The position numbers were made by a program, and so were the translations under genes. Shown here piece after piece: positions 4,862 to 63,919 of a stretch of 64,000 nt of DNA (within the stretch, counting starts at the first letter, position 1; each line of letters starts with the position of its first letter). This DNA comes from an uncultured Acidimicrobiia bacterium (GTDB lineage Bacteria; Actinomycetota; Acidimicrobiia; Spongiisociales; DATADW01). Where the stretch lies: contig CAWGYV010000016.1 in assembly GCA_963826825.1 (NCBI GenBank), positions 131,117 through 195,116 on the forward strand. The letters are read 5' to 3'. The notes beneath the pieces were generated by a model that searched no databases, had not been told where the DNA came from, and saw only the letters and a list, made by a program, of their open reading frames with translations.

Positions 4862-6990
4862 TCAGCCCACCTCGAAGGCATCGAGAGCCGGGAAGAACAC
4901 CTCGCCTGCAAGCGCCTCCAGCTCGCCCTCTTGGGCGATGAGGATTCCAACGGCGGCGTATTCGCCCAACTCGGTAGCTGTCACCAGCGCCGGGCTGCCT
5001 TGGATCGACACCTCGTACAAAGGCCAGGACCGCCCTGCACCCTCGTGGGTGTCGTCCGGTTGGGCGGGGAGCGTGAAGCCGAGTTGACCGGAGACCAGAC
5101 CCAGAAGCTGCTCGGAGGTGAGGCCCTCCCCAGCCTGGAGGACAAGGGCAGTCGGGTCCACCGGGGTTTCCAGCCGGGCGAAGCTCCCCGGTGCGACTTC
5201 GTCCCAACCGCGGGGGGCTAGGCCGGAAAGGGGAACACCGAGCAGGACGGTTTCGAACGGTTCCATCACCACCTCGCCGCTCTCCTCGGCGACGAACTGG
5301 GGGGCGCGACCGAGGAGGCGCAGGAAACATCGGGTGTCGCCGCTGGGTCGTCGATGAAGGCGGTTGCGATCTGCGCCGGGCACCCGGCTCCGGAGCTCAC
5401 GCCGTGGCTCAGTGGGTCGAACTCCACGGTCGTAGCGTTACGCAGAGTGCTCGCTGCTTCGGCCGCCCAGTCGGGAGGCGTGATCGGGTCGAAGCCACCA
5501 GAGAGGACGAGCGTCGGGATGTTGCTGCGGACGGGCAGGGTTTCCATGTTGGCTGCCTCGCCCGCTCCCCATACCCGACACATCTCGAAGGCAGGCGGAC
5601 CGGTGTTGAGCGAAGTGGCGGCGAGGCGCCCACCGATCGGAGCGCTGCTTCCGGCCTCATCGACCTCCACCGGATCGGCAAAGGCGATCTCCTCCCGGCA
5701 CTGCACCGAGGCCAGGGCGCCCAGGGAGAGGAACTCGCCCTGTGCGAGGAAATTGCTCATCAGGCTGGAAGCAGTGGCCGTCTCCCTCGCTTCGAGCTCC
5801 GCCACGAGGCCGGGGAGGAGTGGTATCAGATCGTCCGAGTAGAGCGACTGGAAGGTGAGGCCGATCAGCCCAGCCCCGTCGAGCGCCGCCTGGTATGGAT
5901 CACCGGTGAACACGTCGGTAACCGGGACCATCAGCGGTTCCTCGTCGAGCGCGGCGACCAGGGTGTCGTAGCGGGTGGAGAGGTCGGGGTACGCCGCCGC
6001 GCAGGCGGAATCGGCGGTGCAGGAATCGAAGAGCACGTCGAAGGAGCGCTCGGCGTTGTCGGGGAACGCGGTGAGCGCATCCACCGACGGCGGGTAAGTC
6101 GAGTCGAGAATGACGCTGCGGACCTGCTCGGGATGGTCCCGCATCACGGTCAGCGCCAACCTGGTGCCGTAGGAGATGCCGTAGAGGTTCCAGTCTTCGT
6201 AACCGAGGGCCCGCCCGAGATCGGCAACGTCCGCCGCCGATGCCGCCGAGTCGAACAGGCTCAGGTCCACCCCGTCGTCCTGCAGCCGGTCGCGACACGC
6301 CTCGACCGCATCGATCTGGCGGGCCACGTAGTCATCGGGAGGAAGCACATCGTCGAGCAGCTCGAAATCGAGTTGTCTCGATTCGGGGCAAGCCAATGAC
6401 GGCTCGGAATACCCGGTCCCACGCTGGTCGAACATCACGAGATCTCGATTGACCAGGTAGGCCCCGAAGCGATCCTCGAACGAGAACGGGACCGTTTCCA
6501 GGGCATCGCCACCGGGTCCACCCTCGAGATAGATGACCGGGTCGGGCTCGGGGTTCGGGTCATCGGAGGAGAAAATGGCGACGTGCAGTCGTACCTCGGG
6601 GCTCTCGGGATTCGAGCGGTCGGCAGGCACCACCAGATAGCCACAGCGGACCTCGCGCTCCAATGTGACGGCAAAGCGGCAATCGGCCTCCTCGAACCCT
6701 GGTGGCGTGGTGGCAGCCGATCCCTGGTCGGTCGTGGTGTCAGCCGATTGGACGGTCGTTGTCGCCGCGACCGAAGCCGTGGAGGTACCGGATGCGACCA
6801 CGGTGGTAACCGCCGGTTGTTCAGGTGACCGTGTGATCAGGATCGTGCCGGTGACGGCAAAGATCACGGCGACCGCACCGAGTATTACCGCCCAAGTCCG
6901 TCGAGTCATGTGTTTCTTGGCTTCCGATGGGGTGGGGGATTGTGCTTCCGCGGCGAGTCCAGCCCAAAACAAACGAAGAGGTGACGACAC
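4862..6990 (-). pseudogene. secreted S33-family alpha/beta hydrolase (tripeptidyl-aminopeptidase-like), read through a frame disruption at the G6 run at 5297-5302. In the submitted sequence this appears as two ORFs, 5266..6990 and 4862..5266
   Basis: The N-terminal TM helix, the GISYGT nucleophile elbow and a C-terminal His region are present. The main ORF stops at 5266 with a TGATG overlap onto a 135-aa ORF. That downstream ORF aligns, via a frame switch at the homopolymer, with the C-terminal extension of the paralog at 35043..36984 (DVSCASS / QFVAEESGEVVMEPF versus DTTCASRYQEVRVVEEFPG). Confidence 0.55.
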
Positions 6991-33560: not shown

Positions 33561-34214
33561 TTGATGCGTGCCAGGAAGGTAGCCAGACGCTCCGGGGAGG
33601 CGCTGTTGCTCGTGGTCGCCGGACTGGCGGCTGCCATCACGGGAATCGTCTTGGGAGAGGTGGTTGTGACCGGCGAGATGCCAAGGGTTGAGACGGTGAT
33701 GGGGACGACACAAGGAACCGCTCCCGTCCAACAGGTCGCATCGCAACCGGATGCGACTTCCACGACCCGGGCCGAACCTCAAATCGCAGCAGAGCGAACC
33801 GCCACATCGGCGGCCCCACCGACGACATCGGCGACCCAACCGACGACGACAGCGACTCCCACCAGCGACTTGGTGAGCACGACCGCAGTCACCACGACCG
33901 TGGTGGCATCGGGGGTGACGGTCACGCTCGAGGGCAATCCGGTCCCCGGGGACGGGGAGTGGGATGCGGCGGTGACGGTGGTGGTAGCCGGACCGGGCGG
34001 CAAGCCTGTGTCCGGCGCCACCGTCACCGCAGTCTGGTCGGGGACGATTCCGGTGGCGGTATCGGAGCCATCCGGATCAGATGGACGCGCCGAGTTCCGA
34101 TTGGAAGGCATTGCAGGCGCCTGGGTGTCCTTCACGGTCATCGATGTGCTGGCGGAAGGGCTCGAATACGACGCCGATGGCTCGATCACGAGCCTCGTCG
34201 TTTCGGGGCAATGA
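33561..34214 (+). CDS. secreted/membrane-anchored protein with a Thr/Pro-rich linker
   Basis: The N-terminus is a signal anchor. The low-complexity segment TSAAPPTTSATQPTTTATPTSD is followed by a Gly/Val-rich beta domain. An ATGA overlap links it to the next gene. Confidence 0.4.
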   Translation: MMRARKVARRSGEALLLVVAGLAAAITGIVLGEVVVTGEMPRVETVMGTTQGTAPVQQVASQPDATSTTRAEPQIAAERTATSAAPPTTSATQPTTTATPTSDLVSTTAVTTTVVASGVTVTLEGNPVPGDGEWDAAVTVVVAGPGGKPVSGATVTAVWSGTIPVAVSEPSGSDGRAEFRLEGIAGAWVSFTVIDVLAEGLEYDADGSITSLVVSGQ

Positions 34215-45379: not shown

Positions 45380-45806
45380 ATCGAGACCGATCACCTCGAC
45401 CGACCCGTGATGCGCGATCTTCTGCCTTGACGGTGACCGGGCGGGGTGGCACACTTCCCCGCCACTACAACGCGCTTATCCAGAGCGGTGGAGGGACGGG
45501 CCCTTTGAAGCCGCGGCAACCGGAAGCTCCCCATCAGTAGACACGGGAAGCGACACCGGTGCCAATGCCCGATCGATGAGCTGCCGACGGCGGGATTCCC
45601 GCTCGAGGCGCCGGAGAGCGCGTCGAGAACTGAGGAGGACCGTCGTGACCGATAGCTCGCACCATCCTTTCCGCTCCCCCGCGCCGATCTGTCCTCATGT
45701 GATGTGTGCGCGCTCTCGGGCGGCCGCCCCGTCGGCCGCGGCGGGCTGAGGCTCCGCCGGTCGCCCGAGAGCACTCCGCAACCGCGGAGCCCCACGTCTC
45801 TTTCGA

Positions 45807-47657
<1,851 letters not shown>

Positions 47658-50131: not shown

Positions 50132-51652
50132 TCACTCACCGGCGATGGCGGTCCCACCCGTTCGGCGTGGGTCGGCGGCAGCCACCAGCGTCCGGTCGGC
50201 ATGGCGGAGCGCGGCGGCGGCACCACCGAAGAACATCGATGCCTCGTCGAACGCCCTGGTCGGCAGGGTCACCTTGGAGACGTCGAGCCCCGGCTCGTAG
50301 GCGGCACGGGGGTGTTCCGGCCAGCCTTCGACGTGGAGCCTGGGATGGGCGATGGCGTCCTCCAGCGAAAGCCCGAGCCGGGTGATGTTGAGGAAGACCA
50401 TCGCCATGGCGCTCGTGATCCGGTCGGCGCCCGGCGTGCCCACCGCCATCACCCGCCCATTCCCGTCGATCGCCACCGTGGGCGCCATGTTCGAGGGGAG
50501 GCGGGTCCCCGGTGCCAAGACGTGCACCCCACGGCGGTTGAGCTCCAACTCGCCAAGACAGTTGTTGAGCCAGACCCCTGACTTAAGGACGCCCGACCCA
50601 TAACCGGCCGACATGGTGGCGGCGCACGCCAGTCCGTCGGAGTCGACAGCCGACACGTGGATGGTGGAGGCCGCTCCCATCCCGATCAGCTCTTGGGCGT
50701 TGCTCGCACCGAGCATCTCGGTCACCGCCTCTTCCGGTGACTCCCCGCGGTCGACCCGGGCGGCCCGGTAGGCGAAGACCGCTGCCAGCGCGTCGGCGAA
50801 CCGGGCGACATCCGCTGCCTCCCACGTCCTCGCCGGGCTGTCGCCCATGATCCGCAGCACCGCCGCCACCGCAGCACCCCCAACAGCAGGGGGAGGGACA
50901 GTCGACAAGATCCAGCCGGCGCTCTCCACCCGTAATGGGGTGCGCCGAAGTACCCGGTAGGCGGCCAGATCGTCGATGGTGAGTATCCCGCCCTCGGCCT
51001 CGACCGCATCAGCGATCCGCCGGCCGAGATCGCCACCGTGCAGGCATGCCGGTCCCTCCTCGGCGAGTTGGATCAGCGTGTTTGCCAGGCCTTTGACGAA
51101 CACGGTCGCCCCGGTGGGCAGCGGCATCCCGTCGCCGCCGGTCACTGCCTCCCGGCTGGCATCCTCCCTGCCGAAGATGTCCATCGCACCCTGGGTGAGG
51201 TAGCGGTGGGATGCCGCCGGCAAGGGAAACCCCGTCGTGGCGGCAATGATCGACGGTTCCCAGAGTTCGGGCCATGGCAGCCGTCCGTGCGCATTCGCCA
51301 CGGCGGCAAACGCCGCCACCGACCCCGGCGTGGCGACCGACCCCGGTCCGACCAAGGTCGTCGTTCCACCGCCGTACGCCATCGACACCTCGAACATCGC
51401 CTTGCCGAACCGGTCGGGGGCTAGCCCGCGGCCAGGCATCTCGACCTGCCCGTCGTAGACCACGCTCTCCCCTTCAGCGGAGGTGACCGTGATGAATCCC
51501 CCGGCGCCGAGAGAGCACACCCCCGGCTCCGAGATCGATGCGAACACAGCGGCGGCTATGGCGGCATCGACCGCGTTGCCACCCGCATCGGCGACAGCGG
51601 CGCCAGCAGCGGCTGCCAGCGCCGAGGGAGCGGCGACGGCTACACGACCCAT
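50132..51652 (-). CDS. gamma-glutamyltransferase-family protein
   Basis: 506 aa. The Ntn-hydrolase GGT-like regions align with the GGT family (PGSVATPGSVAAF ... GGDGMPLPTGATVFVKGLANTL ... TIHVSAVDSDGLACAATMSAGYGSG). Confidence 0.55.
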   Translation of the reverse strand: MGRVAVAAPSALAAAAGAAVADAGGNAVDAAIAAAVFASISEPGVCSLGAGGFITVTSAEGESVVYDGQVEMPGRGLAPDRFGKAMFEVSMAYGGGTTTLVGPGSVATPGSVAAFAAVANAHGRLPWPELWEPSIIAATTGFPLPAASHRYLTQGAMDIFGREDASREAVTGGDGMPLPTGATVFVKGLANTLIQLAEEGPACLHGGDLGRRIADAVEAEGGILTIDDLAAYRVLRRTPLRVESAGWILSTVPPPAVGGAAVAAVLRIMGDSPARTWEAADVARFADALAAVFAYRAARVDRGESPEEAVTEMLGASNAQELIGMGAASTIHVSAVDSDGLACAATMSAGYGSGVLKSGVWLNNCLGELELNRRGVHVLAPGTRLPSNMAPTVAIDGNGRVMAVGTPGADRITSAMAMVFLNITRLGLSLEDAIAHPRLHVEGWPEHPRAAYEPGLDVSKVTLPTRAFDEASMFFGGAAAALRHADRTLVAAADPRRTGGTAIAGE

Positions 51653-51661
51653 CCTCCGAGG

Positions 51662-52000
51662 CTACCGAGGGCTGACCTCGGCGACCGACTCGAGCTCCTC
51701 GGCGACGTCGTGGGTCACCTGCTCGGCAACGATCTCGATCCGGCTGCGCCGTCCCTCAGGACCCTCCCAGAACCGGCGTTGGGCGCTCCCGGCCACCCAC
51801 ACCCGCCGACCGGGCTCGAGATCGGCGGTGACATCTTCGCCCGGATCCCACAGCGTCACCGGTAAGACGTCGATACGGCGTCGGGGGGTCTCGGTGCGCA
51901 CCGTCACCAGGTACCGGATCAACCGGGTCCCAGAGTCGAAGACCCGCATCTCGGGTGCCGACGCCAGTCTTCCCGATAGGACAACGAGGTTGAGGTCCAT
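51662..52000 (-). CDS. small OB-fold single-stranded-DNA-binding-like protein
   Basis: 112 aa with an SSB/PriB-like N-terminus (LNLVVLSGRLASAPEMRVFDSGTRLIRYLVTV). There is no acidic tail. Confidence 0.4.
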   Translation of the reverse strand: MDLNLVVLSGRLASAPEMRVFDSGTRLIRYLVTVRTETPRRRIDVLPVTLWDPGEDVTADLEPGRRVWVAGSAQRRFWEGPEGRRSRIEIVAEQVTHDVAEELESVAEVSPR

Positions 52001-52097
52001 CTTTTCCGCTCCTCTCGGGAAGCGCGGGGAACGCTTGGCAACGTAAGACCGGAGTGCGACATTTTCGGGAGCGCCAGGCTCAGCCCCGGTCGTCCTG

Positions 52098-52865
52098 TCA
52101 GGGACTCTCGCTCCATTCGGTGGTGAGCGGGCCGGCCGATCGCATCAAGAGCAGCATGGCGCCCGCGGTGCGCACGAGGTGCGGTGTGCCCGGCGGCCGG
52201 TGGAAGTACCCACCGGGCTGATACCTGTGGACCTTCACACCACCGGCCAAACCAACGGCAGCGGCTAACTCGCCTTCCAGGAGGAACCCCTCCTCGCTCA
52301 CCGGGTGCCGCTGCCATCTCGACCGCTTCCCCCAGTGGACGCCCGCCGCGAGCCACACTCGGGGCCCAGCGCTACCTCCACCGTGGACCGCCTTGACCAT
52401 GAGTCCGGGTGGCAGTTCAGGATCGCCCGCCGGTTCCCAGTCCAGTTCCTCTGTGTCGACCACCGAGCCTGGACCGGGGTCGGTTGCCTCTCCGAAGCTC
52501 AGGGGACCCGCTGAGTGGGCGAGTACCACCGTGTCGATCGGGGCCGAGTACCGACCTGTTACACCTGCGGGCATGCCGACATGTGTCATGGGTCGCAGCG
52601 GTCGACCGTCGAGTTGCAGCCTCCCGCTGACCACGAACATCTCGAGGGCCGCGGTGAAGCCGCCCCGGCCCGAACGCCAGCCGGCTGGGATCCGGATCAG
52701 TTGGGTCGATTCACCCAGGGGGTCACGGGACAGCGTCTTTGTTTCACAGCCCGGTGGCAGCCCGGGGACGGCGAGCGCACGGGCCGACAGGTCGGCCTCG
52801 TGGAAGCCCCCGACGAACTCCTGGGAGCGATCGAGTGTGGCCGGGTCGGCTTGGCGCGCCGTCAC
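52098..52865 (-). CDS. cupin-domain protein
   Basis: 255 aa. Two beta-barrel-like halves have His-containing motifs. This is a composition-level call. Confidence 0.35.
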   Translation of the reverse strand: MTARQADPATLDRSQEFVGGFHEADLSARALAVPGLPPGCETKTLSRDPLGESTQLIRIPAGWRSGRGGFTAALEMFVVSGRLQLDGRPLRPMTHVGMPAGVTGRYSAPIDTVVLAHSAGPLSFGEATDPGPGSVVDTEELDWEPAGDPELPPGLMVKAVHGGGSAGPRVWLAAGVHWGKRSRWQRHPVSEEGFLLEGELAAAVGLAGGVKVHRYQPGGYFHRPPGTPHLVRTAGAMLLLMRSAGPLTTEWSESP

Positions 52866-53019
52866 CGGTTCAAGGTCCCGAGTTCAACCGGCCCCGGGGT
52901 AGGGCGTAGCCGATAGCGTCGTGGAGAGGGCGCACCGCGTGCCACCGTACCCTGGCGCCGCACACGAGAGGATGACGATGGATCCCGAGCCGGGCGGTCG
53001 ACGGTTGGCCGCAACCGAG

Positions 53020-54701
53020 ATGAGCCGCCGCCGGTTCCTTGCTGCCATGAGCAAGGGCGTGGCGGGCATCAGTGCCTCGGGAGCCCTCCTCGCTGCCTGC
53101 AGCGCTGGCGAGGCGACCACGACGACAACGGCTCCTGCGGCGACGTCGCTGACCGGCACCATCACGACCGCCGCCACAGCCACCTCAGCGGCCACGTCCA
53201 CCACCGCGGGGGCATCAGCCAGGGAGTTGAGGATCGACATCCTGGCCGACCCCACCCCGGACGTCGACCCGCTCAACTGGAGCGCGCAGTCGATCCAGAG
53301 GGTCTACCGGCTGACCAACGAGTCGCTGCTCACATGGGACGAGGATCGTGAGATCGTCCCTCAACTCGCCGCCGGCCCGCCCGAGGTCAGCGACGACGGT
53401 CTGACCTACACCGTCACCCTCCGAGAGGGGGTCACCTTCCACAACGACAAGACCTTTACCTCAGAGGATGTGAAGTTCAGCTACGAGACCATCGGCGCAG
53501 AAACGAGCACGTCGCAGTGGAAGCCCCGGGTTTCGATGATCTCGTCGATCGATGTCCCGGACGAACTCACCGTGGTCTTCACCCTGGAGAGCGTCTTCAC
53601 TCCCTTTCCCGTGACTCTTGCCCGTATCCCGATCGTCCCATCCAACGTCCCGTACACAGTGGGCGACACCTATGCGCGGACGACAATCGGGACCGGCCCG
53701 TACCGATTCGTCGAGTGGACCCAGGGCGACCAGATCGTCATGAGGCGGTTCGATAGCTACTGGGACAGCTCGCTTCCAGTGACCGGACAGGTCGTGATGA
53801 AGGTGGTCCCCGAGGACGGCGCCCGCTCGGCCAACCTGGTGTCGGGAACGACCCACATCGTTCCCGACCCCGCCCTGAGCCAGCTCCATGTCCTCGACCG
53901 CGGCGGCGTCACCGTCAGCATCACCGAGGACTCGACCACCCGGGTCTACATGTACCCCAACCTCGACCCTGCTCGATTCACCGGGGCCTCATACGCCGCT
54001 CGGCGCGCCATTGCCGAGGCGATCGGGCGCGGTGGGATCGCCAACGAGGCCTTCTTTGGCACGGCCATCCCCGCAGCGACCCTGCTCTCCAGCCGGGCCG
54101 ACCACTTCGACCCTCAGCTGGGCGACTTCTTCGGCGGACCGGCCGATCCCGACGAAGCGGCGCAATATCTCGAAGAGGCCGGGGGTCCACCGGAGCAGAC
54201 ACTCGGCGCTCTACCTGATCGACGACCCCTACCTGTTGGACACCGCGGTGATGGTCCAGGCCGACCTCGCCGTGGCGGGCATACCCGTGGCGATATTCGT
54301 GGAGAGCACAAGCCAGGTGGTGGAGCGGCTCACAGTGACCAGGGATTACGACCTCGTGCTGCTCGCCGTCGAGGTCCAAGCAGCATCAGGCTTCGGTTCT
54401 GATTACCCGTATTGGAGCGCGACCTCGGACATGCCCGGCAACCTCAACGGTTCGCTCTACGGGTTCCCCGCCGACGAGGAGTACGACGCTCTTCTGCTCG
54501 CCGCGGTGCAGGCGCCCGAGGAGGAGGCCGGGGCTGCCTGGCAAGCGGTGCAGCGCTACGACGTCGAGCAGGGCCTCTATCAGATCCAGATCGTCACCGC
54601 CCGCTACGTGGAAGCGATTGCCGCCTCGGTCACCGGTTACCGGGCGTCATCACTTGGGAGGCCCGTACAACGTCAAGCACGCCGCGGTGAGCGCTTCCTG
54701 A
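53020..54701 (+). pseudogene. ABC transporter substrate-binding protein, family 5 (peptide/nickel type) with a Tat signal. It is frame-disrupted near 54181-54210 and probably again near 54660
   Basis: ATG at 53020 gives MSRRRFLAAM (twin-arginine). The SBP_bac_5 core is present through YLEEAG. The continuation (LYLIDDPYLLDTAVMVQADLAVAGIPV) is in another frame. A G5 run lies at 54181-54185. Confidence 0.5.
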
Positions 54702-54839
54702 TATCGCCCATCCTGGAACCGTTGTGGCGTAACCGAGCGGTCTGTTCGACACCCCAGCCACGCAGGATCGTTGGCGCAGCGAGGCGGCAATATCCTCGAG
54801 CTGTTAACGTAACTGATTCGTTACCGAAGGAGGTAGGAG

Positions 54840-55250
54840 ATGGCGACCGGATCGGGCACCAAGGAAGACCCCTGGGTTCTCCAGACGCCCAGTCTCACCT
54901 CGACATTCCAGATGTACCGTGACGAAGCCGCCGACCCTCCTGTGCTGGTGTGCACGGTGGGGAGCACGGTCCTCCATTACGACCTGCGCATCATCGACGA
55001 CATGCACGCCATGCTCTCCGAACGCGGCGATTGGATGCCGCTGGGCAATGCCGACGAGCAGAAGCAGGCAGCCCGAGGGATCGGTCGAGGCGTGGGCCCG
55101 ATCGGCCGACAACCCGATCGGCGGTTGGTACGGACTCAAGAAGGGCCTACGGGGAAGGGTGGGGAACTACGTCACGCCCGTGCTCGAGGTGATGGGTCTG
55201 GCCGAGTTGGAGCACAACCCGAGGAACAACCGGATCCGCGCCCTCTGACA
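54840..55250 (+). pseudogene. small conserved hypothetical protein, frame-disrupted at the GGGCCC site near 55105
   Basis: The N-terminal half (MATGSGTKEDPWVLQTPSLTSTFQMYRDEAADPPVLVCTV ...) and the C-terminal half (NPIGGWYGLKKGLRGRVGNYVTPVLEVMGLAELEHNPRNNRIRAL) are both protein-like but lie in different frames. Confidence 0.4.
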
Positions 55251-55252
55251 GC

Positions 55253-55735
55253 TCAGATCGGCCGGCGGCGCCGCGAGGTGATCACGCCGGTGTCGAACCC
55301 GCCGAGGTGGAGTCCCCCGGCGAACCGGGCGTGCTCGATCTTGAGGCAGCGGTCCTGGACGACGGCGAGACCCGCATCTCGGGCACGCTCCGCCGCCTCC
55401 TCGTGGCGGAGACCGAGTTGGAACCAGACCACTTTGGCCCCGACATCGATCGCCTCCTCGACCACCGATGGGATCTCCTCGGCCCGCCGGAAGATGTCGA
55501 CGATGTCAGGCGGCTCGGGGAGGTCGGCCAGCGCCGGGTAGCAGCGCAAACCGAGCACCTCTGGGTAGGTGGGGTTGACCGGCCAGATGGTGTAACTGGT
55601 GCGGATCAGGTAGGTGGCGACGAAGTTCGACGAACGCAGCGGGTTGGCCGACACACCGACCAGTGCGACGGTGCGGGCAGTGCCCAGGATCCGGAGACGC
55701 TCTCCCACAGGTGCGTCGGCAGTCTCGATGGTCAC
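55253..55735 (-). CDS. CoA-binding domain protein (YccU-like)
   Basis: A GTG start at 55735 forms a GTGA overlap with the metY stop. The Rossmann-like CoA-binding motifs are RTVALVGVSANPLRSSNFV ... WPVNP. Confidence 0.6.
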   Translation of the reverse strand: MTIETADAPVGERLRILGTARTVALVGVSANPLRSSNFVATYLIRTSYTIWPVNPTYPEVLGLRCYPALADLPEPPDIVDIFRRAEEIPSVVEEAIDVGAKVVWFQLGLRHEEAAERARDAGLAVVQDRCLKIEHARFAGGLHLGGFDTGVITSRRRRPI

Positions 55736-57009
55736 TTGAGCGCCCGATCCAGGTCCCAAAGGATGTCTTCGGGGTCCTCGAGGCCGACCGAGATCCGGAT
55801 CATGTCGTCGCTCACCCCCGATGCGGCCCGGCTCTCAGGCGGCACCTGTTGGTGCGTGGTCGAGGCGGGGTGGATCACGAGTGTCTTGGCGTCGCCCACA
55901 TTGGCCAGGTGGCTGGCCAACTCGACCGATTCGATGAACCTCACACCGGCTTCAAATCCGCCGGTGAGCCCGAAGGTGAATACCGCCCCCGGTCCGCCCG
56001 GGGTGTACTTCTCGGCGAGCCGTCGAGTGGGGCTGTCGTCGAAGATCGGATAGCTCACCCAGTCCACCGCCGAGTGCCCGCGGAGGTGCTCAGCCACCAC
56101 CCGGGCATTCGAGGCGTGGGCCGACATCCTCAGCGGAAGGGTCTCCAACCCCAGCAGCAGGAGGAAGGAGTTGAAGGGCGAGAGGGCGGCGCCGACGTCG
56201 CGCAACAATTCGACCCTCGCCTTGCTCAGCCACCCGTACTCGCGGAAGTTCTCCCAGAACCGGAGACCGTGATAGGCGGGCGACGGTTCGGTGAGCGAGG
56301 CGAACTTCCCGTTGTCCCAGGGGAACCGCCCCGACTCGACGATCACGCCGGCGATGACGACGCCGTGGCCGCCAATGAACTTGGTGGCCGAATGGACCAC
56401 GATGTCGGCTCCCCACTCGATCGGCCGGCACAAGAACGGCGTGGCAAACGTGTTGTCGATCATCAGCGGGATGTCGTGGGAATGGGCCACGTCGGCGATG
56501 GCCTCGATGTCGAGCACGTCGCCGCGGGGGTTGCCGATCGTCTCCCCGTAGATCAGCTTGGTCCGTTCGGAAACGGCTTGATCGAAGGCATCCGGAGACG
56601 AGGGATCGACGAAGTCGACGTCGATACCCATCTTCCTCAATGTGACGTCGAACTGCGTATAGGTCCCACCGTAGAGGTTGCGGGCCGCCACGATGTGGTC
56701 GCCCGCCGAGGCGGTCGTCAGCACGGCGATGAGCTGCGCCGCCTGCCCCGATCCGGTGGCGACCGCACCCAGACCGCCCTCCAGCGAGGCCATCCTCTCC
56801 TCGAAGGCGGCGTTCGTCGGGTTGCCGATCCTGGTGTAGATGTTGCCCCAGTTCTGCAGGGCGAACAGGTCGGCTGCGTGTTGGGCGTCCTCGAACACGA
56901 ACGACGTCGTGGCGTAGATCGGCATCGCCCTGGCGCCGGTCTCGGGGTCAGGTCTCTGGCCGGCATGGATCGCTCTGGTGGCGAAGCCGAAGTCGTGCTG
57001 TTCTTCCAA
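55732..57009 (-). CDS. metY: O-acetylhomoserine sulfhydrylase paralog (intact second MetY copy)
   Basis: 425 aa: AIHAGQ ... IYTRIGNPT ... SATKFIGGHG (PLP-Lys) ... [19 protein letters not shown]. The start is TTG at 57009 with a weak RBS. Confidence 0.8.
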   Translation of the reverse strand: MEEQHDFGFATRAIHAGQRPDPETGARAMPIYATTSFVFEDAQHAADLFALQNWGNIYTRIGNPTNAAFEERMASLEGGLGAVATGSGQAAQLIAVLTTASAGDHIVAARNLYGGTYTQFDVTLRKMGIDVDFVDPSSPDAFDQAVSERTKLIYGETIGNPRGDVLDIEAIADVAHSHDIPLMIDNTFATPFLCRPIEWGADIVVHSATKFIGGHGVVIAGVIVESGRFPWDNGKFASLTEPSPAYHGLRFWENFREYGWLSKARVELLRDVGAALSPFNSFLLLLGLETLPLRMSAHASNARVVAEHLRGHSAVDWVSYPIFDDSPTRRLAEKYTPGGPGAVFTFGLTGGFEAGVRFIESVELASHLANVGDAKTLVIHPASTTHQQVPPESRAASGVSDDMIRISVGLEDPEDILWDLDRALK

Positions 57010-57075
57010 GGCTCGGGAGTGTACGGGTGAGCCCTTCGCAGTAGCTTCGCAAGGCGCACAAGAGGAGGTGATCCA

Positions 57076-57541
57076 TTGCTCGATGAGGGAACGGCGCTCC
57101 CCGACTTCGAATCCACGGACGACCGTGGGCGACGGGTGACCCGCGGCGACCTGTTGGGGAAATGGGCAGTCGTCTGGTGGTACGTCGAGGCGGACACCCC
57201 CGGCTGAACGCTCGAAGGGGAGGGGTTCCGTGACCGAACCCCTGAATTCGAAGCAGCCGGCGCCGCCATCTTCGGGGTGTCATACGACTCGCCCGCAGGA
57301 CAACCGCGCCTGGTCGGAGATGATGGGATTCGACTTCCCGTTGCTGTCCGACCCCGACCATGCCATCGGGCGCGCCCAAGGTGTCGAGCGGGAACCCGAT
57401 GACCGTCGCTTTGGCTGGCCGCGACGGGTTACCTACCTGGTCGACCCCGACGGGATGGTGCGACGCGCCTACCTGGTTACCGACAACGCGGCTCACGCCG
57501 AGGAGGTGCTCGGCGACCTCCGGTCTCTCGGCGAGCAATGA
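57076..57541 (+). CDS. bcp: Bcp/PrxQ-type peroxiredoxin with an in-frame TGA at the peroxidatic Cys position (candidate selenocysteine) and one frame disruption near 57290
   Basis: The AGAGGAGGTG RBS is 5 nt before TTG at 57076. The sequence GTALPDFESTDDRGRRVTRGDLLGKWAVVWWYVEADTPG is followed by TGA at 57205-57207. The in-frame continuation TLEGEGFRDRTPEFEAAGAAIFGVSYDSP aligns with TPGCTxxxCGxRDxxxEF of Bcp. After a one-base shift the C-terminus reads NRAWSEMMGFDFPLLSDPDHAIG ... RVTYLVDPDGMVRRAY. Total length is about 154 aa, a typical Bcp size. Confidence 0.55.
57212..57251 (+). other. SECIS-like bulged stem-loop beginning 5 nt after the in-frame UGA
   Basis: The structure is UCGAA-GGGGA-GGGGUUC-[CGUGACC]-GAACCCC-UGAA-UUCGA. 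It has a 7-bp perfect upper stem, a 7-nt apical loop containing GU, and a 5-bp lower stem with internal loops. The apex is about 27 nt downstream of UGA. Confidence 0.45.
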
Positions 57542-57548
57542 GCAACCG

Positions 57549-58994
57549 TCACCCTCCGACGATGGTGCGCGACTGCTCCCTCAGGTACTGGGTCAGGTAG
57601 TGGGGACCCCCGCCTGCCTTGCCGCTGGTCCCCGACCCCTTCCAGCCACCGAACGGCTGCACGCCGGGCCAGGCGCCGGTGGTTGCCCCCGCCCTGCGGT
57701 TGAGGTAGACGACTCCGGCCTCGATCCCGGTGAGGAATCGGTCGATCTCGTCCCTGGTCGCGGCTGTAGAACCCTGCCGTCAGCCCGTACTCGGTGTCGT
57801 TGGCCCGGGCCAGTCCCTCGTCCATGTCGTCCACCGCAGCCACCGCCACGAATGGAACGAAGAGCTCCCGCTTCCAGATCCACGACGACTCCGGAGCGGT
57901 CACCACGGTCGGCTGGACGAAGTTCCCCCGCTCGAGATCGCCCTCGGTGATGACCTCCCCTCCGGCGAGTATCGAGCCGGTCGACCGTGCCTCGGCCACC
58001 GCTTCGCCGAAGCGCTCGACGGCTCGCCTGTCGATCACCGGCCCGAGGTACACCGACCGGTCGAGCGGGTTACCCACCGCCACCTTCTCCGCCTTGGCGA
58101 TGAGGCCGTCGATGAACTCGTCCAGCACCGGACGCTCCACGTAGACCCTCGAGGCGGCGGAGCATTTCTGACCTCCGAACCCGAAGGCGGAGCGCATCAC
58201 CCCGTCGGTGGCCTCGTCGATGTCGGCGGCAGCGGTGACGATCACCGGGTTCTTGCCACCCATCTCACAGATGGCCGGCTTCGGATAGCTGGCGGCGAAG
58301 CTGCGGTGGATCCCCATCCCCACCTCGTATGAGCCGGTGAACGTGATCCCGTCAACATCGGGGTGGTGCACCAGCGTGTCGCCGGCAATTGGTCCCGAGC
58401 CCGTGACCAGGTGAACGGCACCCGCCGGCACACCGGCCTGCCGTAGCGCCTCGTAGAGCTTCACCGCCATCAGCGCTCCGGCATTGGACGGCTTGAGCAC
58501 CACGGTGTTCCCGGCAACCAGGGCGGCGCCCGCCGGCCCCGCCGCAAGCGCCATCGGGAAGTTGAAGGGACTGATCACCGCCCATACGCCATACGGTCGC
58601 ATCACGTCCCAGGTGGCCTCATCGGGCGACAGCCGGTTCATGGCCTGCGTGTAGCCGTCTTGGTCCTCGATCTCGTGGCAGTAGTAGCGGATGAGATCGG
58701 CCGACTCCTCGACGTCGCCCAAAGCCTCGAGGCGGTTCTTCCCCACTTCCATGGTCATCAGCGCCGCCAACTCGAATCGCTGGTCGCTGATGACGTCCGC
58801 CGCCTCGCGCAACAGCCTGGCGCGCTCCTGCCATGGGGTCGCCGCCCAGGCGGGGCGAAGGAGCGGGCGGCGTCGACGGCGGCGTCGACGTCCTTCGCGG
58901 TGGCTTGGGCGAAACGTCCCAGGACGACGTCGTGATCGATCGGGGATCGCTCCTCGTGCTCGCCGTCGCCGGAGCGCGCCTCGCCATCGATCAT
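57549..58994 (-). pseudogene. aldehyde dehydrogenase (NAD(P)-dependent ALDH superfamily) with frame disruptions near 58852-58855 (G4 run) and near 57770
   Basis: The N-terminal piece is MIDGEARSGDGEHEERSPIDHDVVLGRFAQATAKDVDAAVDAARSFAP. The core is AWAATPWQERARLL ... FTGSYEVG ... EMGGKNP ... the catalytic Cys in GQKCSAASR. The true C-terminus (DEIDRFLTGIEAGVVYLNRRAGATTGAWPGVQPFGGWKGSGTSGKAG) is in a third frame. Confidence 0.55.
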
Positions 58995-59168
58995 CAGCGG
59001 GTGGCTCTCCCCGAGACGAGCTCCGCGCCGCCTCTATACCGTGGTCGTATCCGTCGTGGAGGTCGGCATCATCCGCCGACATGGTTGCGTACGTGACCCG
59101 AAAGCTCATGGCGGCGAACCCTAGGTCGCCAGGTCTGGGCGACGACCCGATCGATACCATCGACTGAG

Positions 59169-60267
59169 ATGTCGGAACCCAACCTGTCGATGCCCGTGGT
59201 CTGGACCGACCGGCACCGCCTCCATGAGCCGAAGGGTGAGGTTTGGCTCGGGGTGTGGATCGAGGGGACCGAGGTTCCGGCAAGAGGTGAACGCATCCGC
59301 CAGGCCCTGGAGGAGGCCGGCGCCTCGTTCGTCGATCCTCGCGCCTACGACGACGGCCCCATTCGAGGCCGTCCACGACCCCGCCTTTCTCTCGTTTCTC
59401 GCCAACGCATACGACGAATGGGTGGCAGGCGGATACCTCGACGAGCCAGGGCAGGACCGCGTCGTGCCGTATGTCTTCCCGCTCCCCCAGCTGACATCGG
59501 GGAGGGCGCCACGCCGGCCCGCAGCGGCCTCGGCGCGCACTGGGATGTTCGCCATGGACACGATGACCCTGATCGGTCCCGGCACCTGGGAGGCGGCCAG
59601 AGCCGTCGCCGAGGCCGCGCTGACCGCAGCCGACCTGGTCGCCGACGGCATCCCTGCCGCATACGCCGTCTGCCGGCCACCGGGACACCACGTCGGCCGC
59701 GACTTCTACGGAGGGTCTTGCTACCTGAACAACGCCGCCATCGCCGCACAGCGGCTGCGCTCCCGCGGCATCCCAAGGGTTGGGATCATCGACCTCGACG
59801 CCCACCACGGCAACGGGACTCAGGAGATCTTCTACCGGCGTGTCCGACGTGGTCTACGCCTCGGTCCACGTCGATCCGGGTGCGGGATGGTTTCCCCACT
59901 TCGTCGGGTACGACGATGAGACCGGCGATGAGGACGGTGCAGGGGCGAACCTGAATCTTCCGTTGCCACCGGGGACCGGCGATTCCGAGTGGCTGCGAAG
60001 CGGTCGGTCGGCTGATCGGATTCGTCGCCGACCACTGGCATCGGAGCAGTGGTCGTGTCGCTGGGCGTGGATGCGGCCCGCGACGACCCTGAAAGCCCGT
60101 TGCAGGTCACGGCCGACGGCTATGCGGAAGCGGGCCGGCTGGTGGCAGGGCTCGGCCTCCCCACCGTCTTCGTCCAGGAAGGCGGGTACCACCTGGACAG
60201 CCTCGGCCAACTCGTGCTGGCTACGCTGCTCGCCTTCGAGGGGGAGAAGCGGGAGAGGCATGACTGA
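59169..60267 (+). pseudogene. histone-deacetylase-family (acetoin-utilisation / acetylpolyamine-amidohydrolase-like) enzyme broken by about four frame shifts (about 59357, 59830, 59995, 60045)
   Basis: HDAC motifs are spread over three frames: MSEPNLSMPVVWTDRHRLHEP ; EAVHDPAFLSFL ... CRPPGHHVGRDFYGGSCYLNNAAIAAQRL ... VGIIDLDAHHGNGTQEIF ; DVVYASVHVDPGAGWFPHFVGYDDETG ; AVVVSLGVDAARDDPESPLQVTADGY ... FVQEGGYHLDSL. Confidence 0.5.
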
Positions 60268-62113
60268 GGCCGGTGCGCTGTCCTCGAAGCTGGTTGCGAT
60301 GTGGGTCGGCAAGGACACGCACGGCGGCGTCCCCAGCCAACCCCGCCCCGATCTGCCGCCTCCCCCGCACTGGCGGCTCGAGGCGATCGCCGCCACAGAA
60401 CGCCCCCATCACCTCGCCCTCTCGCCCGACGGCGCCACCGTCGCCTTCGCCCTCGACCGCGACACGTCCGACATGTGGTCGGTCCCCGTCGCCGGGGGGA
60501 CCGCCCGACGGTTGAGCGTGGACCGGGTCCCCCATGCCTACTGGGAGGACACCGCCCCGGTATGGTCGCCCGACGGGAGTCGCCTCGCCTATGTGGACGA
60601 GGGAATGCTCTGCGTGGTCCCCGGTGGCGGCGGCCCAGGCAAACGTCTGGTGGAAGCGGGCGATCCGCATTGGGTGGACGAGAACCGGATGATCGTCACC
60701 GTCGATCGGGATCGGCATTCCCGTTTCGCCTGGCTCGATCCTGACGACTCGTGGCCGCAGCCGTTCGGACCTTCCGATGGCGATGTCGGCGAGCTGTCGC
60801 TCTCCCCGGACCGGTCGTGGGCGGTGTTCACCTTCTACCCGCCATCCGACCGCAAGCGAAGCGACATCTGGCGGGTCGAGTTGGCGGACGGCGCCTCCCG
60901 CCGCCTCAGCGGCACCCCCGGCTACCAGGAGCGCGGAGCCGCCATCAGCCCGGACGGTTCGACCATCGCCTTCTTGTCCGAACAGCCGGGATGGAACCAG
61001 GTCCATCTGATGGCTGCCGATGGGTCGGGGCGGCGACAGCTGACCGAAGACCAGGGCAACTTCAGCCAGCTTGCCTGGCACCCCGACGGCGGCTCGCTCG
61101 TGGCGACCAGGCACAACTCCGGGGTATGCGACCTGGTCAGGGTCGATGGCACCACGGGCGAGGTCACCGTGATCGGAGTCGGGGGATGGTGGAGCGACCC
61201 GGCGTGGACGGCTGACGGTGCCCTCGTCGCACTCCACGAGGACCAGCGCACCCCGCCAAGGATCGTCCGCATCGACCGCGACGGATCGATCGCCACACTG
61301 CTGCAACCGGCGCCGGCGGCGGTGATGGCCGCGCCATACGTCGTCCCCGAGGTGGTCAGCTACAAGTCCCTCGATGGCCTCGAGATCCCGGCGTTCCTCT
61401 TCAAGCCGGCCGCCGCCGAGGACAAGCCGGTGGCCGCCATCGTCTATCCCCACGGCGGCCCGACATCGGTCTACGGCGACGAGTGGGACGGTCACGCCCA
61501 GTATTTCGTCGAGAAGGGGTACGCCTGGCTGGCGATCAACTTCAGAGGGAGCGTCGGGTACGGCCTCGAGTTCGAGCGAGCCAACCACGGCGTCTGGGGG
61601 GTCAGGGACACCGAGGACTGCCTCGCCGCCTACGACTTCCTCGCCTCGCTCGATTGGATCGATCCCCGCCGCATCGGGATATTCGGCGCCAGCTATGGGT
61701 CCTACATGGCCCTTTGCTCGCTGGCAATGGACCCCGAGCACCGCTTCGCCTGCGGGGTGCTCAAGTACGGCGACTGCAACATCCTCACCACTTGGGCCCA
61801 GGGCGACCGCGGCGGGGCCGAGGACCTGGAACGGATGATGGGTCACCCCGCAGACAACCCGGAGGCCTATCGGGCCGGCTCACCGGTGCACCACCTCGCC
61901 GACGTGGAGCGGCCGCTGCTCATCGCCCACGGCGAGCAGGATGAGCGGGTTCATCTCAAGCAGTCCGAGGAGCTGGTCGAGCACCTCGACAAGCTCGGCA
62001 AGACGTACGAGTACGTGACCTATCCCACCGAGGGTCACGGGCTGCTCAGAGCGGCGCCCCAGGTGGACTTCTACCGGAGGCTGGAGCGCTTCCTCGACTG
62101 GTATCTGATGTAG
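60260..62113 (+). CDS. S9-family serine peptidase (prolyl-oligopeptidase / acylaminoacyl-peptidase-like: beta-propeller plus alpha/beta hydrolase)
   Basis: ATG at 60260 follows a GGGAGAGG RBS and overlaps the HDAC-like stop. The propeller repeats are SPDGATVAF, SPDGSRLAY, SPDGSTIAF and HPDGGSLVA. The catalytic GxSYG is IFGASYGSYMA. Asp and His lie in the C-terminal region (IAHGEQDERV ... EGHG). Confidence 0.8.
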   Translation: MTEAGALSSKLVAMWVGKDTHGGVPSQPRPDLPPPPHWRLEAIAATERPHHLALSPDGATVAFALDRDTSDMWSVPVAGGTARRLSVDRVPHAYWEDTAPVWSPDGSRLAYVDEGMLCVVPGGGGPGKRLVEAGDPHWVDENRMIVTVDRDRHSRFAWLDPDDSWPQPFGPSDGDVGELSLSPDRSWAVFTFYPPSDRKRSDIWRVELADGASRRLSGTPGYQERGAAISPDGSTIAFLSEQPGWNQVHLMAADGSGRRQLTEDQGNFSQLAWHPDGGSLVATRHNSGVCDLVRVDGTTGEVTVIGVGGWWSDPAWTADGALVALHEDQRTPPRIVRIDRDGSIATLLQPAPAAVMAAPYVVPEVVSYKSLDGLEIPAFLFKPAAAEDKPVAAIVYPHGGPTSVYGDEWDGHAQYFVEKGYAWLAINFRGSVGYGLEFERANHGVWGVRDTEDCLAAYDFLASLDWIDPRRIGIFGASYGSYMALCSLAMDPEHRFACGVLKYGDCNILTTWAQGDRGGAEDLERMMGHPADNPEAYRAGSPVHHLADVERPLLIAHGEQDERVHLKQSEELVEHLDKLGKTYEYVTYPTEGHGLLRAAPQVDFYRRLERFLDWYLM

Positions 62114-62144
62114 CACCCGCCGTAGGCGGGAGAAGGGACGATCG

Positions 62145-63919
62145 ATGACAAGGCGGCTCACCACCATGGGGGCGCTGCTCGCCCTGCTGGCTGCATGCGG
62201 TACCGGGGGGGATACGACCGCGACGACCACGAGCGGATGGGACCGCGCCGGCGACAGCAGACGACCGCGACCGGCGGGACCACCGGAGAACCGAGCGACA
62301 CCACCGCATCCGCAAGCGGTGCAACCGGGGGCACGGTCCGCATCGGCTACGGCGGCTCCCCCGACAGCCTCAACCCGGGCCTCGGCCTGCTCTCCGAGGC
62401 ATACATCATGTACGAGTTGGTGTACGACACACCGATAACCATCGACCTCGACGGAAACTACGTTCCCGAACTGGCCGAGGAGTGGTCGGTGTCTGATGAC
62501 GGGCTCACCTGGACGCTCGACCTGGTGGAAGGAGCCACCTTCCACGACGGAACGCCGCTCACCGCCGAGGACGTCAAGTACTCGCTCGAGTTGTGGCGGG
62601 ACCACGAGGACTGGGCCTATCTCTCCGCCTACGGAGACGTATTTGAAGATATCCAGGCGCCCGACGAGCAGACGGTCACCATCACCTTGACCAACCCGGT
62701 GGGCAACTTCGAGTCGCGCATGGTGTTCATGTACGTCGTGCCCAAGGCGATCTGGGAGGAGGTCGAGGATCCGGTCGCCTTCGACAACGCCGAGATGATC
62801 GGATCGGGGCCCTTCAAACTGGCGGAGTACCGGCAGGGCGAGTTCGTCCGGCTAGAGGCCAACGATGACTACTTGGGGGCACCGCCCAATGTCGATGAGG
62901 TGATCTTCCAGACGATCCAGAACGCCGACGCCCGGGTCTCGGCGCTGACCACCGGTCAAGCGGACATGATCACCGAGTTCCCGAAGACGGCGGTGGCCAC
63001 GCTGCGCAACGACCCCAACATCACGGTCGTGAGTGGAGAGCCCCTGTCGCCCAGCCTGGTCGACATCTTCTTCAACCTGGTCGAACCGGAGCGATGCCCC
63101 GAGGACGGCGTCTGCAGCGGCCACCCGGCGCTGCGTGACCTGGCGGTGCGCACCGCCCTGGCCCATGCCGTCGACAAGCAGCAGATGATCGACGTGGTCC
63201 AGCTCGGACTCGGGACGCCCGGCCTGTCCCTCCTCGCTCCCGGTTACGGGCCGTACTTCAACTCTGAATTGCAGGACTACGCATTCGACATCGCCGAGGC
63301 AAACCGGATCCTCGACGAAGCGGGGTACGCCGACGAGGACGGAGACGGCGTACGCGAGTGCCTCCCCGATCAGGACTGCGACGACCTCACCTTCAGATTC
63401 AATTTCAACACCGACGCCGACACCGCCCCCCGCGAAGCGGAGCTCCTTTCGGGATGGTGGGCGGAGATCGGCGTGGCGCTACAGATCCAGGGACTCGACG
63501 GCGACACTCTGACCTCGGTGTGCTGTCCCGCATTCGACTTCGACATCATCCGTTGGAGCTGGGGAGGGGATCCCGACCCGGCCTTCCTGTTGGGCATCGT
63601 GTTGTGCGACGAGCTGGATACCGGGTTGTCGGAAACGGGCTACTGCAACGAGGAGTACGACCAGCTCTACGCCGACCAGGGGATCGAGACCGACCCCGAG
63701 GCGCGCCGCCAGATCATCTGGGAGATGCAGGAGATCCTGATGCGGGACCTCCCCTACATCATCCCCTACTACGACCAGACGGTGCAGGCGTACCGAAACG
63801 ACACATTCACCGGCTGGCAGGACTCGGCGACCCGCCTCTCGCTCGAGGATCCGACCTCACTGACGGTCATCCGGCCGGCGGGTATGAGTAGTGAGTACTG
63901 GGTAGTGAGTAATGAGTAG
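62145..63919 (+). pseudogene. ABC transporter substrate-binding lipoprotein, family 5 (peptide/nickel type), with a frame disruption in the low-complexity linker (G7 run at 62203-62209 or shortly after)
   Basis: The lipoprotein signal MTRRLTTMGALLALLAACGTGG is in one frame. The full SBP_bac_5 body (TVRIGYGGSPDSLNPGL ... TLDLVEGATFHDGTPLTAEDVKYS ...) is in another frame that starts 50 nt downstream. Confidence 0.55.

Follow-up and report, generated by a model that had tools for sequence, protein, structure and literature searches.

We describe here a gene at positions 57076-57541 of the forward strand of a 64,000-nucleotide stretch of DNA from an uncultured Acidimicrobiia bacterium; the whole stretch is hereafter referred to as the window. 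This gene very probably encodes a selenoprotein of 154 residues, a peroxiredoxin of the BCP/PrxQ type, in which selenocysteine (Sec) would be the peroxidatic residue, U44. The assignment is drawn from comparison of sequences. An initial annotation of the window had proposed a Sec-containing Bcp/PrxQ with a selenocysteine insertion sequence (SECIS) element downstream. This proposal is borne out by the joint conservation of the TGA codon and of the hairpin that follows it, by compensatory changes in the hairpin stem, and by TGT or TGC codons at the same position in the cysteine (Cys) homologues.

Structure of the gene

The gene can be described as two coding segments separated by an in-frame TGA, with a hairpin located directly behind this codon. 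The Shine-Dalgarno sequence, the 5-nt spacer and the TTG start at 57076, all named in the initial annotation, are present at 57061-57078. The Shine-Dalgarno sequence is also kept in five related loci, L001, L002, L003, L005 and L006, when these are aligned to the window. A start codon (ATG, GTG or TTG) is located exactly 43 codons 5' of the TGA in all 22 genome loci compared, and translation of three further loci, L027, L029 and L030, from this same position also opens with Met. Reading frame 1 runs up to the TGA as ...WAVVWWYVEADTPG and continues downstream of it as TLEGEGFRDRTPEFEAAGAAIFGVSYDSP; the longer reading of this frame is LLDEGTALPDFESTDDRGRRVTRGDLLGKWAVVWWYVEADTPG, TGA (57205-57207), TLEGEGFRDRTPEFEAAGAAIFGVSYDSPA. 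Past about position 57296, the homologous reading switches to frame 2 and consists of (E)DNRAWSEMMGFDFPLLSDP...PRRVTYLVDP...LGEQ. The features of the gene are as follows.

57061-57070 (+), Shine-Dalgarno sequence AGAGGAGGTG, read directly, 5 nt from the start codon
57076-57541 (+), BCP/PrxQ-type peroxiredoxin gene of 154 codons, with TGA at the codon of the peroxidatic Cys and then a hairpin
57076-57078 (+), start codon TTG, at a position matched by the starts of the relatives
57076-57204 (+), codons 1-43, the N-terminal part, which ends in ...WWYVEADTPG and includes Thr41 of TxxU (translation, Pfam AhpC-TSA, ratio of nonsynonymous to synonymous substitution rates, dN/dS)
57205-57207 (+), in-frame UGA, codon 44, at the peroxidatic-Cys position (conservation; aligned with the peroxidatic Cys, Cp, of Xanthomonas campestris BCP, XcBCP)
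57208-57295 (+), codons 45-73 and the first base of codon 74 in the original frame, TLEGEGFRDRTPEFEAAGAAIFGVSYDSP (translation, alignment with relatives)
57296 (+), extra C, GCCCG[C]AGGAC, which shifts the frame and is absent from L001, L002, L003, L005 and L006 (six-way alignment)
57297-57541 (+), rest of codon 74 to codon 154, …EDNRAWSEMMGFDFPLLSDP…PRRVTYLVDP…LGEQ, including R117 (translation)
57539-57541 (+), stop codon TGA, the frame 2 end of the gene

Conservation of the UGA codon among relatives

One genome per species was scanned with the repaired protein as the query, which gave 26 loci, 22 of them with a full-length match. The full-length loci belong to metagenome-assembled genomes (MAGs) of Acidimicrobiia (L001-L019) and Alphaproteobacteria (L020 and L021) and to one unclassified MAG (L022); L013, L012, L016 and L018 are found on OZ241886.1, CATQHS010000001.1, OZ253564.1 and CAWAGG010000006.1, respectively. 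In all 22 loci, which are 40-91% identical to the query, a TGA is located 43 codons past the start and is followed by an open homologous frame. Three more loci were reached from C-terminal fragments of public gene calls, L027 from P0024, L029 from P0019 and L030 from P0022. With these, all 25 related loci have TGA as codon 44.

The relation was also tested in reverse, by scanning metagenome contigs with the 21-nt core of the hairpin, GGGGTTCCGTGAYCGAACCCC, alone. The scan returned 80 contigs (L034-L113). An in-frame TGA lies exactly 17 nt 5' of GGGGTTCCGTGAYCGAACCCC in each of the 80, where it occupies the TPG-U-T (Cp) position of a BCP gene, and a Cys codon is found there in none. The stem of the hairpin starts 17 nt after the UGA in every sequence compared. 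Whether orthologues have TGC or TGA at this codon, a question that the initial annotation had raised, is thus answered by TGA in both sets, with the hairpin kept.

The closest full-length proteins in a collection of 5.8 billion proteins are Cys forms with about 50% identity (P0002, P0003, P0005, P0007 and P0010), in which the motif reads ...WWYPKAGTPGCTVEGRELS.... At the DNA level, two of them, P0002 and P0007 (loci L031 and L032), have TGT or TGC at codon 44 and no conserved hairpin, and so provide the Cys side of a Cys/Sec pair. Closer relatives, with 82-91% identity, appear in the public calls as C-terminal fragments of 87-116 amino acids (aa) that start past the UGA, while the gene of L030 is called as a pair of 43 aa and 114 aa. 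Split or fragmentary calls of this kind are the usual signature that gene callers leave on a selenoprotein gene. The public calls divide the gene at the UGA in L027 (4009-4920), L028 (2777-3688) and L030 (664-1140). There, the part before the UGA is called either as a stub of 43 aa or as an open reading frame (ORF) of 186 aa, which is spuriously extended at its N-terminus and ends at the UGA, and the downstream piece is an 'AhpC-TSA' protein of 114-116 aa that begins at a GTG right behind the UGA.

In a crude neighbour-joining tree of 186 tips, 82 distinct Sec forms and 8 Cys forms make a clade of 90. The Sec forms are nearly monophyletic with the 8 Cys forms nested among them, which suggests a single origin, horizontal spread and occasional reversion to Cys. 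The 21-nt core is also found in the BCP genes of L020 and L021, the two Alphaproteobacteria MAGs, and of L022.

Structure of the hairpin and selection on RNA and protein

The minimum free energy (MFE) structure of the region 3' of the UGA is a hairpin in which a lower stem encloses an upper stem and its apical loop.

57212-57251 (+), whole SECIS-like hairpin, lower stem enclosing the upper stem-loop (MFE structure)
57212-57216 / 57247-57251 (+), lower stem UCGAA/UUCGA (MFE structure)
57222-57228 / 57236-57242 (+), upper stem GGGGUUC/GAACCCC of 7 bp, or 8 bp when the pair A57221-U57243 is counted (MFE structure)
57229-57235 (+), apical loop CGUGACC of 7 nt (MFE structure)
57221-57243 (+), SECIS core (A)GGGGUUC / GAACCCC(U) with its loop (pairing, covariation, frozen codons)

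The extent of the hairpin, both stems and the loop agree with the initial description, except that the hairpin begins 4 nt, and not 5 nt, after the UGA. The first G of the upper stem lies 17 nt past the U of the UGA, and 21 nt separate the UGA from the apical loop. In this 7-nt loop the G and the U are at +26 and +27 from the UGA, and the G at the second position is invariant. The position of the hairpin, the 21-nt spacing, the 7-nt loop and the conserved G fit what we take to be the bacterial SECIS consensus of bSECISearch.

Pairing was analysed in an alignment of 26 sequences, 24 of which are distinct. Over the 24 distinct sequences, 98.2% of the cells of the upper stem are paired. Among the seven pairs of this stem, two show compensatory changes in L009, L027 and L030, G-C to A-U and U-A to C-G, by which the stem GGGGUUC/GAACCCC becomes GGAGCUC/GAGCUCC. 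The change of the stem leads to a correlated shift of the encoded residues, from G-F..T to E-L..A. The lower stem is paired in 82.5% of cells and shows zero covariation; its role is uncertain.

Synonymous codons are frozen inside the hairpin only, as the following positions illustrate.

Gly50 (hairpin), GGG in 21 of 21
Phe51 (hairpin), TTC in 21 of 21
Arg52 (hairpin), CGT in 21 of 24
Arg54 (hairpin), CGA in 22 of 24
Thr55 (hairpin), ACC in 21 of 21
Pro56 (third base just beyond the stem), all four codons
Gly and Arg conserved in other parts of the gene, 3-4 codons, with GGC and CGG/CGC preferred

The rare codons CGT and CGA are fixed solely where they form the loop and the 3' arm. In these alignments, the synonymous sites are stronger evidence for selection at the RNA level than the covariation. 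Selection also acts on the protein. In comparisons of the window with L001, L002 and L003, dN/dS is 0.11-0.14 on the 3' side of the UGA and 0.17-0.36 on its 5' side, so that the protein is constrained no less behind the UGA than before it. The purifying selection found 3' of the UGA shows that the downstream part is translated.

Active site and protein family

The protein obtained by joining the two segments matches the Pfam family AhpC-TSA (PF00578) with an E-value of 1.2e-28 and 100 bits, the cutoff being 26. The best NCBIfam models are PrxQ (75 bits) and BCP (72 bits), both under their equivalog cutoffs, and the best matches in the Protein Data Bank (PDB) are all BCP, with the BCP/PrxQ of Xanthomonas campestris at an E-value of about 1e-22. 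In this match, the segment 'stpgCtteg' of XcBCP is aligned to 'dtpg[UGA]tleg' of the window protein, as expected from the initial assignment of the in-frame TGA at 57205-57207 to the catalytic Cys of a Bcp/PrxQ gene. Residues T41, U44 and R117 align with the active site of XcBCP. R117 corresponds to the conserved catalytic Arg and is invariant in 24 of 24 sequences. The proline of the PxxxT motif is replaced by Val in the window protein (WWYVEADTPGU) and is Pro in many relatives (WWYPKA.TPGU).

The repaired protein does not contain any Cys. The position Cp+5 is occupied by Glu and that of Cys84 of XcBCP by Ser, so that the resolving Cys of 2-Cys BCPs, which is located either at Cp+5 in helix alpha-2 or in helix alpha-3, is lacking at both places. 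This agrees with the absence of a resolving Cys remarked on at the outset. Since neither position holds such a residue, the catalytic cycle must be of the 1-Cys (here 1-Sec) type. 1-Cys BCPs exist, and the protein is, as judged from its sequence, a 1-Sec variant of the BCP/PrxQ subfamily. Membership in the PrxU family was considered and rejected, as the NCBIfam model NF040737 gives 38.2 bits for a cutoff of 270. The PrxU type mentioned in the initial annotation does not apply at this score (38 bits against 270), and the protein is instead of the BCP/PrxQ-like 'Prx, TxxU' family.

Frameshift at position 57296

A frame disruption of 1 nt had been noticed near 57290; it consists of one inserted C, exactly at 57296. 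When C57296 is removed, the protein reads ...SYDSPEDNRAW..., which is identical to L005 over that stretch. Over 12.4 kb, L005 and the window share 96.5% identity; L005 has two other private insertions within the peroxiredoxin gene, while L006 has one private insertion of its own there. Over the 12.4-kb syntenic block, we counted 9 private 1-nt insertions in the window, 13 in L005, 16 in L006 and 16 in L002, that is about one per 1-1.4 kb in the window and its sibling assemblies. The insertions of the window (51114-63527, compared with four syntenic relatives) are located at 52896, 53000, 54207, 55071, 57296, 57752, 59019, 62238 and 62258. The region 51114-63527 appears to be an indel-rich and probably long-read assembly. 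For independent single-base insertions that occur about once per kb in genes kept by purifying selection, errors of assembly or base calling are the best explanation, and C57296 is most likely such an error rather than a mutation. Of the two possibilities that had been offered for the disruption, an error-prone region is therefore retained; decay is less likely, as C57296 is private and neighbouring genes are broken too.

An insertion of 2 nt and a deletion of 1 nt are also found in the window over the region 51114-63527. The convergent aldehyde dehydrogenase gene (57549-59100, reverse strand) contains the private insertions at 57752 and 59019; its stop codon is 7 nt from that of the peroxiredoxin gene, and its C-terminal ...FGGWKGSGTSGKAGG... 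segment is in a different frame. The insertion at 54207 interrupts an SBP_bac_5 gene. A second Cys_Met_Meta_PP gene of the window is split over two frames by an apparent 1-nt frameshift.

Other features of the window and of related loci

The split gene of the Cys_Met_Meta_PP family encodes a pyridoxal phosphate (PLP) enzyme of Cys/Met metabolism (45935-47657, forward strand). Profile positions 1-133 are found in ORF 45935-47041 and positions 132-381 in ORF 46767-47657. It is a paralogue, about 68% identical, of the MetY-like gene beside the peroxiredoxin gene, and a S-adenosylmethionine (SAM) riboswitch (RF00162, 65 bits) is located upstream of it, at 45473-45582 on the forward strand.

The Sec form of the window is flanked by the MetY-like gene and the aldehyde dehydrogenase gene. 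The Cys forms of L031 (5041-8337) and L032 (5283-8326) are instead located in an oxidative-stress neighbourhood, with genes for an ECF sigma factor and a putative anti-sigma factor upstream and for VIT1, MsrA and MsrB downstream.

Further in-frame TGA codons flanked on either side by coding signal were sought in the window, and no convincing second selenoprotein gene emerged. One candidate, at about 33870-33925 on the reverse strand, has a 9-bp hairpin (at about 33893) with the SECIS-like loop GGUGACU, located 22 nt after a TGA. It was rejected because this TGA is out of the Thr/Val-rich coding frame, and the match is therefore a chance one. In L017, ARAGORN reports a 102-nt 'tRNA-Trp (cca)' at 5108-5209 on the reverse strand, some 200 nt 5' of the Sec-BCP gene; as Rfam finds no tRNA there, this call is probably false.

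Weighing of the evidence

Several observations weigh against the selenoprotein assignment. The 61-nt fold has no extra stability compared with dinucleotide shuffles (z = -0.6), and a perfect stem of at least 7 bp in the same distance range follows 2.6% of the window positions, a base rate that is the same for all TGA trinucleotides in the window. The measured rate agrees with the chance of a few percent that had been estimated in the initial annotation. The 23-nt core alone has a folding energy of -12.1 kcal/mol (z = -2.45). As a single sequence the hairpin exceeds chance weakly, and because it is weak evidence alone, its significance rests on conservation across other genomes. Among the distant loci, many were picked by the pattern DRTPEFEA, which overlaps the peptide encoded by the hairpin, and this introduces a selection bias. 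L009, which was found via another pattern, carries both the TGA and the hairpin, as does L029, reached through P0019, a 93-aa fragment that begins past the hairpin. L027 and L030, also reached independently of DRTPEFEA, show the same combination. The covariation is limited, as the compensatory changes come from three related sequences and may represent one or two evolutionary events. A search of 57150-57320 against Rfam (E <= 10) gave no SECIS family, only two chance matches. This null result is uninformative because the SECIS models of Rfam are said to be a poor match for the bacterial elements (bioRxiv 10.64898/2026.04.03.716425).

The machinery for Sec insertion is a further point on this side. 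ARAGORN found no tRNA-Sec in the 64 kb of the window or in the related loci, which total 780 kb, and motif scans of the same sequences for the SelB G1 motif, SelD GxGCGCK and the SelA PLP motif gave nothing credible; these sequences are a small fraction of the genomes concerned. All 84 complete genomes of Actinomarina (Actinomarinales, Acidimicrobiia) are reported to encode selA, selC, selD and a divergent selB (bioRxiv 10.64898/2026.04.03.716425). Among the papers searched for selenocysteine in Acidimicrobiales or in the named MAG families, only this preprint on Actinomarina was found, and none on the lineage of the window. Finally, the window copy is frame-shifted as assembled, and it would be a dead copy if C57296 were real.

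This last point leads to the rival that we consider unlikely but the least so, namely that the family is a genuine selenoprotein family whose window copy is a recently inactivated pseudogene, with C57296 a real mutation in a decaying gene. The frameshift is indeed in the assembled sequence, and the surroundings of C57296 (GCCCG[C]AGG) form no long homopolymer, unlike those of the most typical errors of long reads. However, this C is private: L005, despite its 96.5% identity, lacks it and has its two other insertions in the gene, and L006 has another. The 9 private 1-nt insertions in 12.4 kb also break the aldehyde dehydrogenase, SBP_bac_5 and Cys_Met_Meta_PP genes, for which decay at that rate is implausible under purifying selection, and the sequence 3' of 57296 is otherwise intact and conserved. 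At the other extreme, an ordinary Cys-BCP gene might have received its TGA by nonsense mutation or by an error of sequencing, and the hairpin might be a chance structure in the G+C-rich coding DNA of the window. One base suffices to turn TGC into TGA, the assembly is prone to errors and the lone hairpin is statistically unremarkable. Yet TGA occurs in 25 of 25 loci and 80 of 80 contigs from independent projects, which include short- and long-read assemblies judging by the naming of the contigs; where these assemblies err, they do so by indels rather than by substitutions; and hairpin conservation, covariation and frozen synonymous sites are unexpected by chance. By these comparisons, the reading of the TGA as an error is the least credible of all and is effectively refuted.

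A recoding of the UGA that does not involve Sec is hardly more credible. It could take the form of insertion by a near-cognate tRNA (Cys or Trp), of hairpin-stimulated read-through without SelA, SelB, SelC and SelD, or of a gene regulated by termination. The lack of any Sec machinery gene in the window or the 780 kb of related loci would fit with it, as would an apical loop unlike that of the E. coli fdhF type, with no bulged U and with GU changed to GG in some members. On the other hand, the UGA is precisely at the catalytic Cys of a thiol peroxidase, a classic Sec/Cys pair, and an enzyme with Trp as its catalytic residue would be dead, which is at odds with the strong purifying selection on the protein. 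Genome-wide reassignment of TGA does not apply, since the peroxiredoxin gene itself ends with an ordinary TGA stop (57539-57541). The position of the hairpin and its conserved loop G also fit the geometry of bacterial SECIS elements, which we take from the bSECISearch consensus. In addition, Sec-containing peroxiredoxins (Sec-Prx) with TxxU are an established family (PMC9312934, PMC1794560). A related possibility, very improbable although slightly less so, is that these Acidimicrobiia lack canonical selA, selB, selC and selD and that the hairpin drives a non-canonical recoding, by Cys or another residue or with a divergent substitute for SelB; if true, it would be a new recoding mechanism instead of ordinary Sec insertion. 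A near-monophyletic Sec-BCP clade that spans Actinomycetota and Pseudomonadota with an almost invariant 21-nt core is far more likely than non-canonical recoding.

Proposed mechanism

Translation starts at TTG 57076 behind the strong Shine-Dalgarno sequence, as the sequence and the conserved start position show. If the gene is a selenoprotein gene, as we prefer, translation would not terminate at the UGA (57205-57207), where the downstream hairpin, with its core at 57221-57243, would act as a bacterial SECIS. Conservation, covariation and frozen synonymous sites point to a hairpin that recruits SelB-GTP-Sec-tRNA(Sec), by which Sec would be inserted; the decoding of Sec in bacteria by SelB and Sec-tRNA(Sec) is summarised in PMC9312934. 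The product would be a '1-Sec' peroxiredoxin. By analogy with the chemistry of the family, the selenolate of U44, placed by Thr41 and Arg117, would reduce the peroxide and become a selenenic acid. As there is no resolving Cys, this selenenic acid would have to be reduced directly by an external thiol system, for example thioredoxin or a low-molecular-weight thiol. Without selenium or the Sec machinery, translation would end after 43 residues.

Significance and comparison with known systems

For the close relatives in the collection searched, public annotation gives either a 43-aa stub and a C-terminal fragment or the fragment alone, while the predicted true product is a selenoenzyme of 154 aa. 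The assignment implies that soil Acidimicrobiia related to the window use selenocysteine, which extends the marine precedent of Actinomarinales. The 21-nt SECIS core at the fixed position +17 is a practical key for searching metagenomes, as all 80 contigs that it returned were hits. The Sec-Prx family is already known, and the points of interest are modest: the soil Acidimicrobiia lineage, the almost invariant core shared across phyla and the systematic mis-annotation. Existing knowledge of Sec decoding or of peroxiredoxins is not changed.

The hairpin resembles the SECIS of E. coli fdhF, which is also a stem-loop within the coding sequence, at a fixed short distance 3' of the UGA, and whose apical loop has a conserved G towards its 5' side; in both, the hairpin also codes for protein. 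There are differences. The essential G23 and U24 of the fdhF loop are about 3 nt nearer to the UGA than the G at +26 and the U at +27 of the window, and the upper stem of the window lacks the bulged U of the fdhF element. The 7-nt loop here reads CGKGAYM, and some members have G in place of its U.

The protein shares its fold and length with the Cys-type BCP/PrxQ proteins (X. campestris BCP, PDB 3gkk and 5iiz; E. coli Bcp), as well as the active site TPG-[C/U]-T, the conserved Arg and the FRD..EF helix. It differs from them by Sec in place of Cys at Cp and by the lack of a resolving Cys, with Ser in place of Cys84 of XcBCP. Typical BCPs have (Y/F)FYP where the window protein has WWY. PrxU of Eubacterium (Peptoclostridium) acidaminophilum is likewise a peroxiredoxin with Sec, from UGA, at the peroxidatic position, but it is of a different peroxiredoxin subfamily, whose model has 233 positions against 154 residues here. 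PrxU of Eubacterium acidaminophilum has been characterised by experiment as a Sec peroxiredoxin (Sohling et al. 2001, as cited in PMC13188914).

The nearest known system is the family catalogued as 'Peroxiredoxin (Prx)', COG1225 (Bcp) / PF00578, with the motif TxxU, which is an experimentally supported bacterial selenoprotein family (PMC9312934, PMC13188914). In a 2016 survey of about 5,200 genomes, where 78 organisms had it, it ranked seventh among the selenoprotein families by how widespread they are (PMC5029168), and several Cys-to-Sec conversions have been inferred for it (PMC1794560). Sec-Prx is prominent in marine metagenomes (Zhang & Gladyshev surveys; PMC9312934, PMC13188914, PMC1794560, PMC5029168). 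The members described here differ in that they come chiefly from uncultured Acidimicrobiia, with some from Alphaproteobacteria MAGs. They share with the catalogued family the AhpC-TSA fold, Sec for the peroxidatic Cys in T-x-x-U (here T41-P-G-U44), a SECIS hairpin directly 3' of the UGA, and abundant Cys-containing homologues. As every feature that defines Sec-Prx at the sequence level is found in it, the window gene joins this known family.

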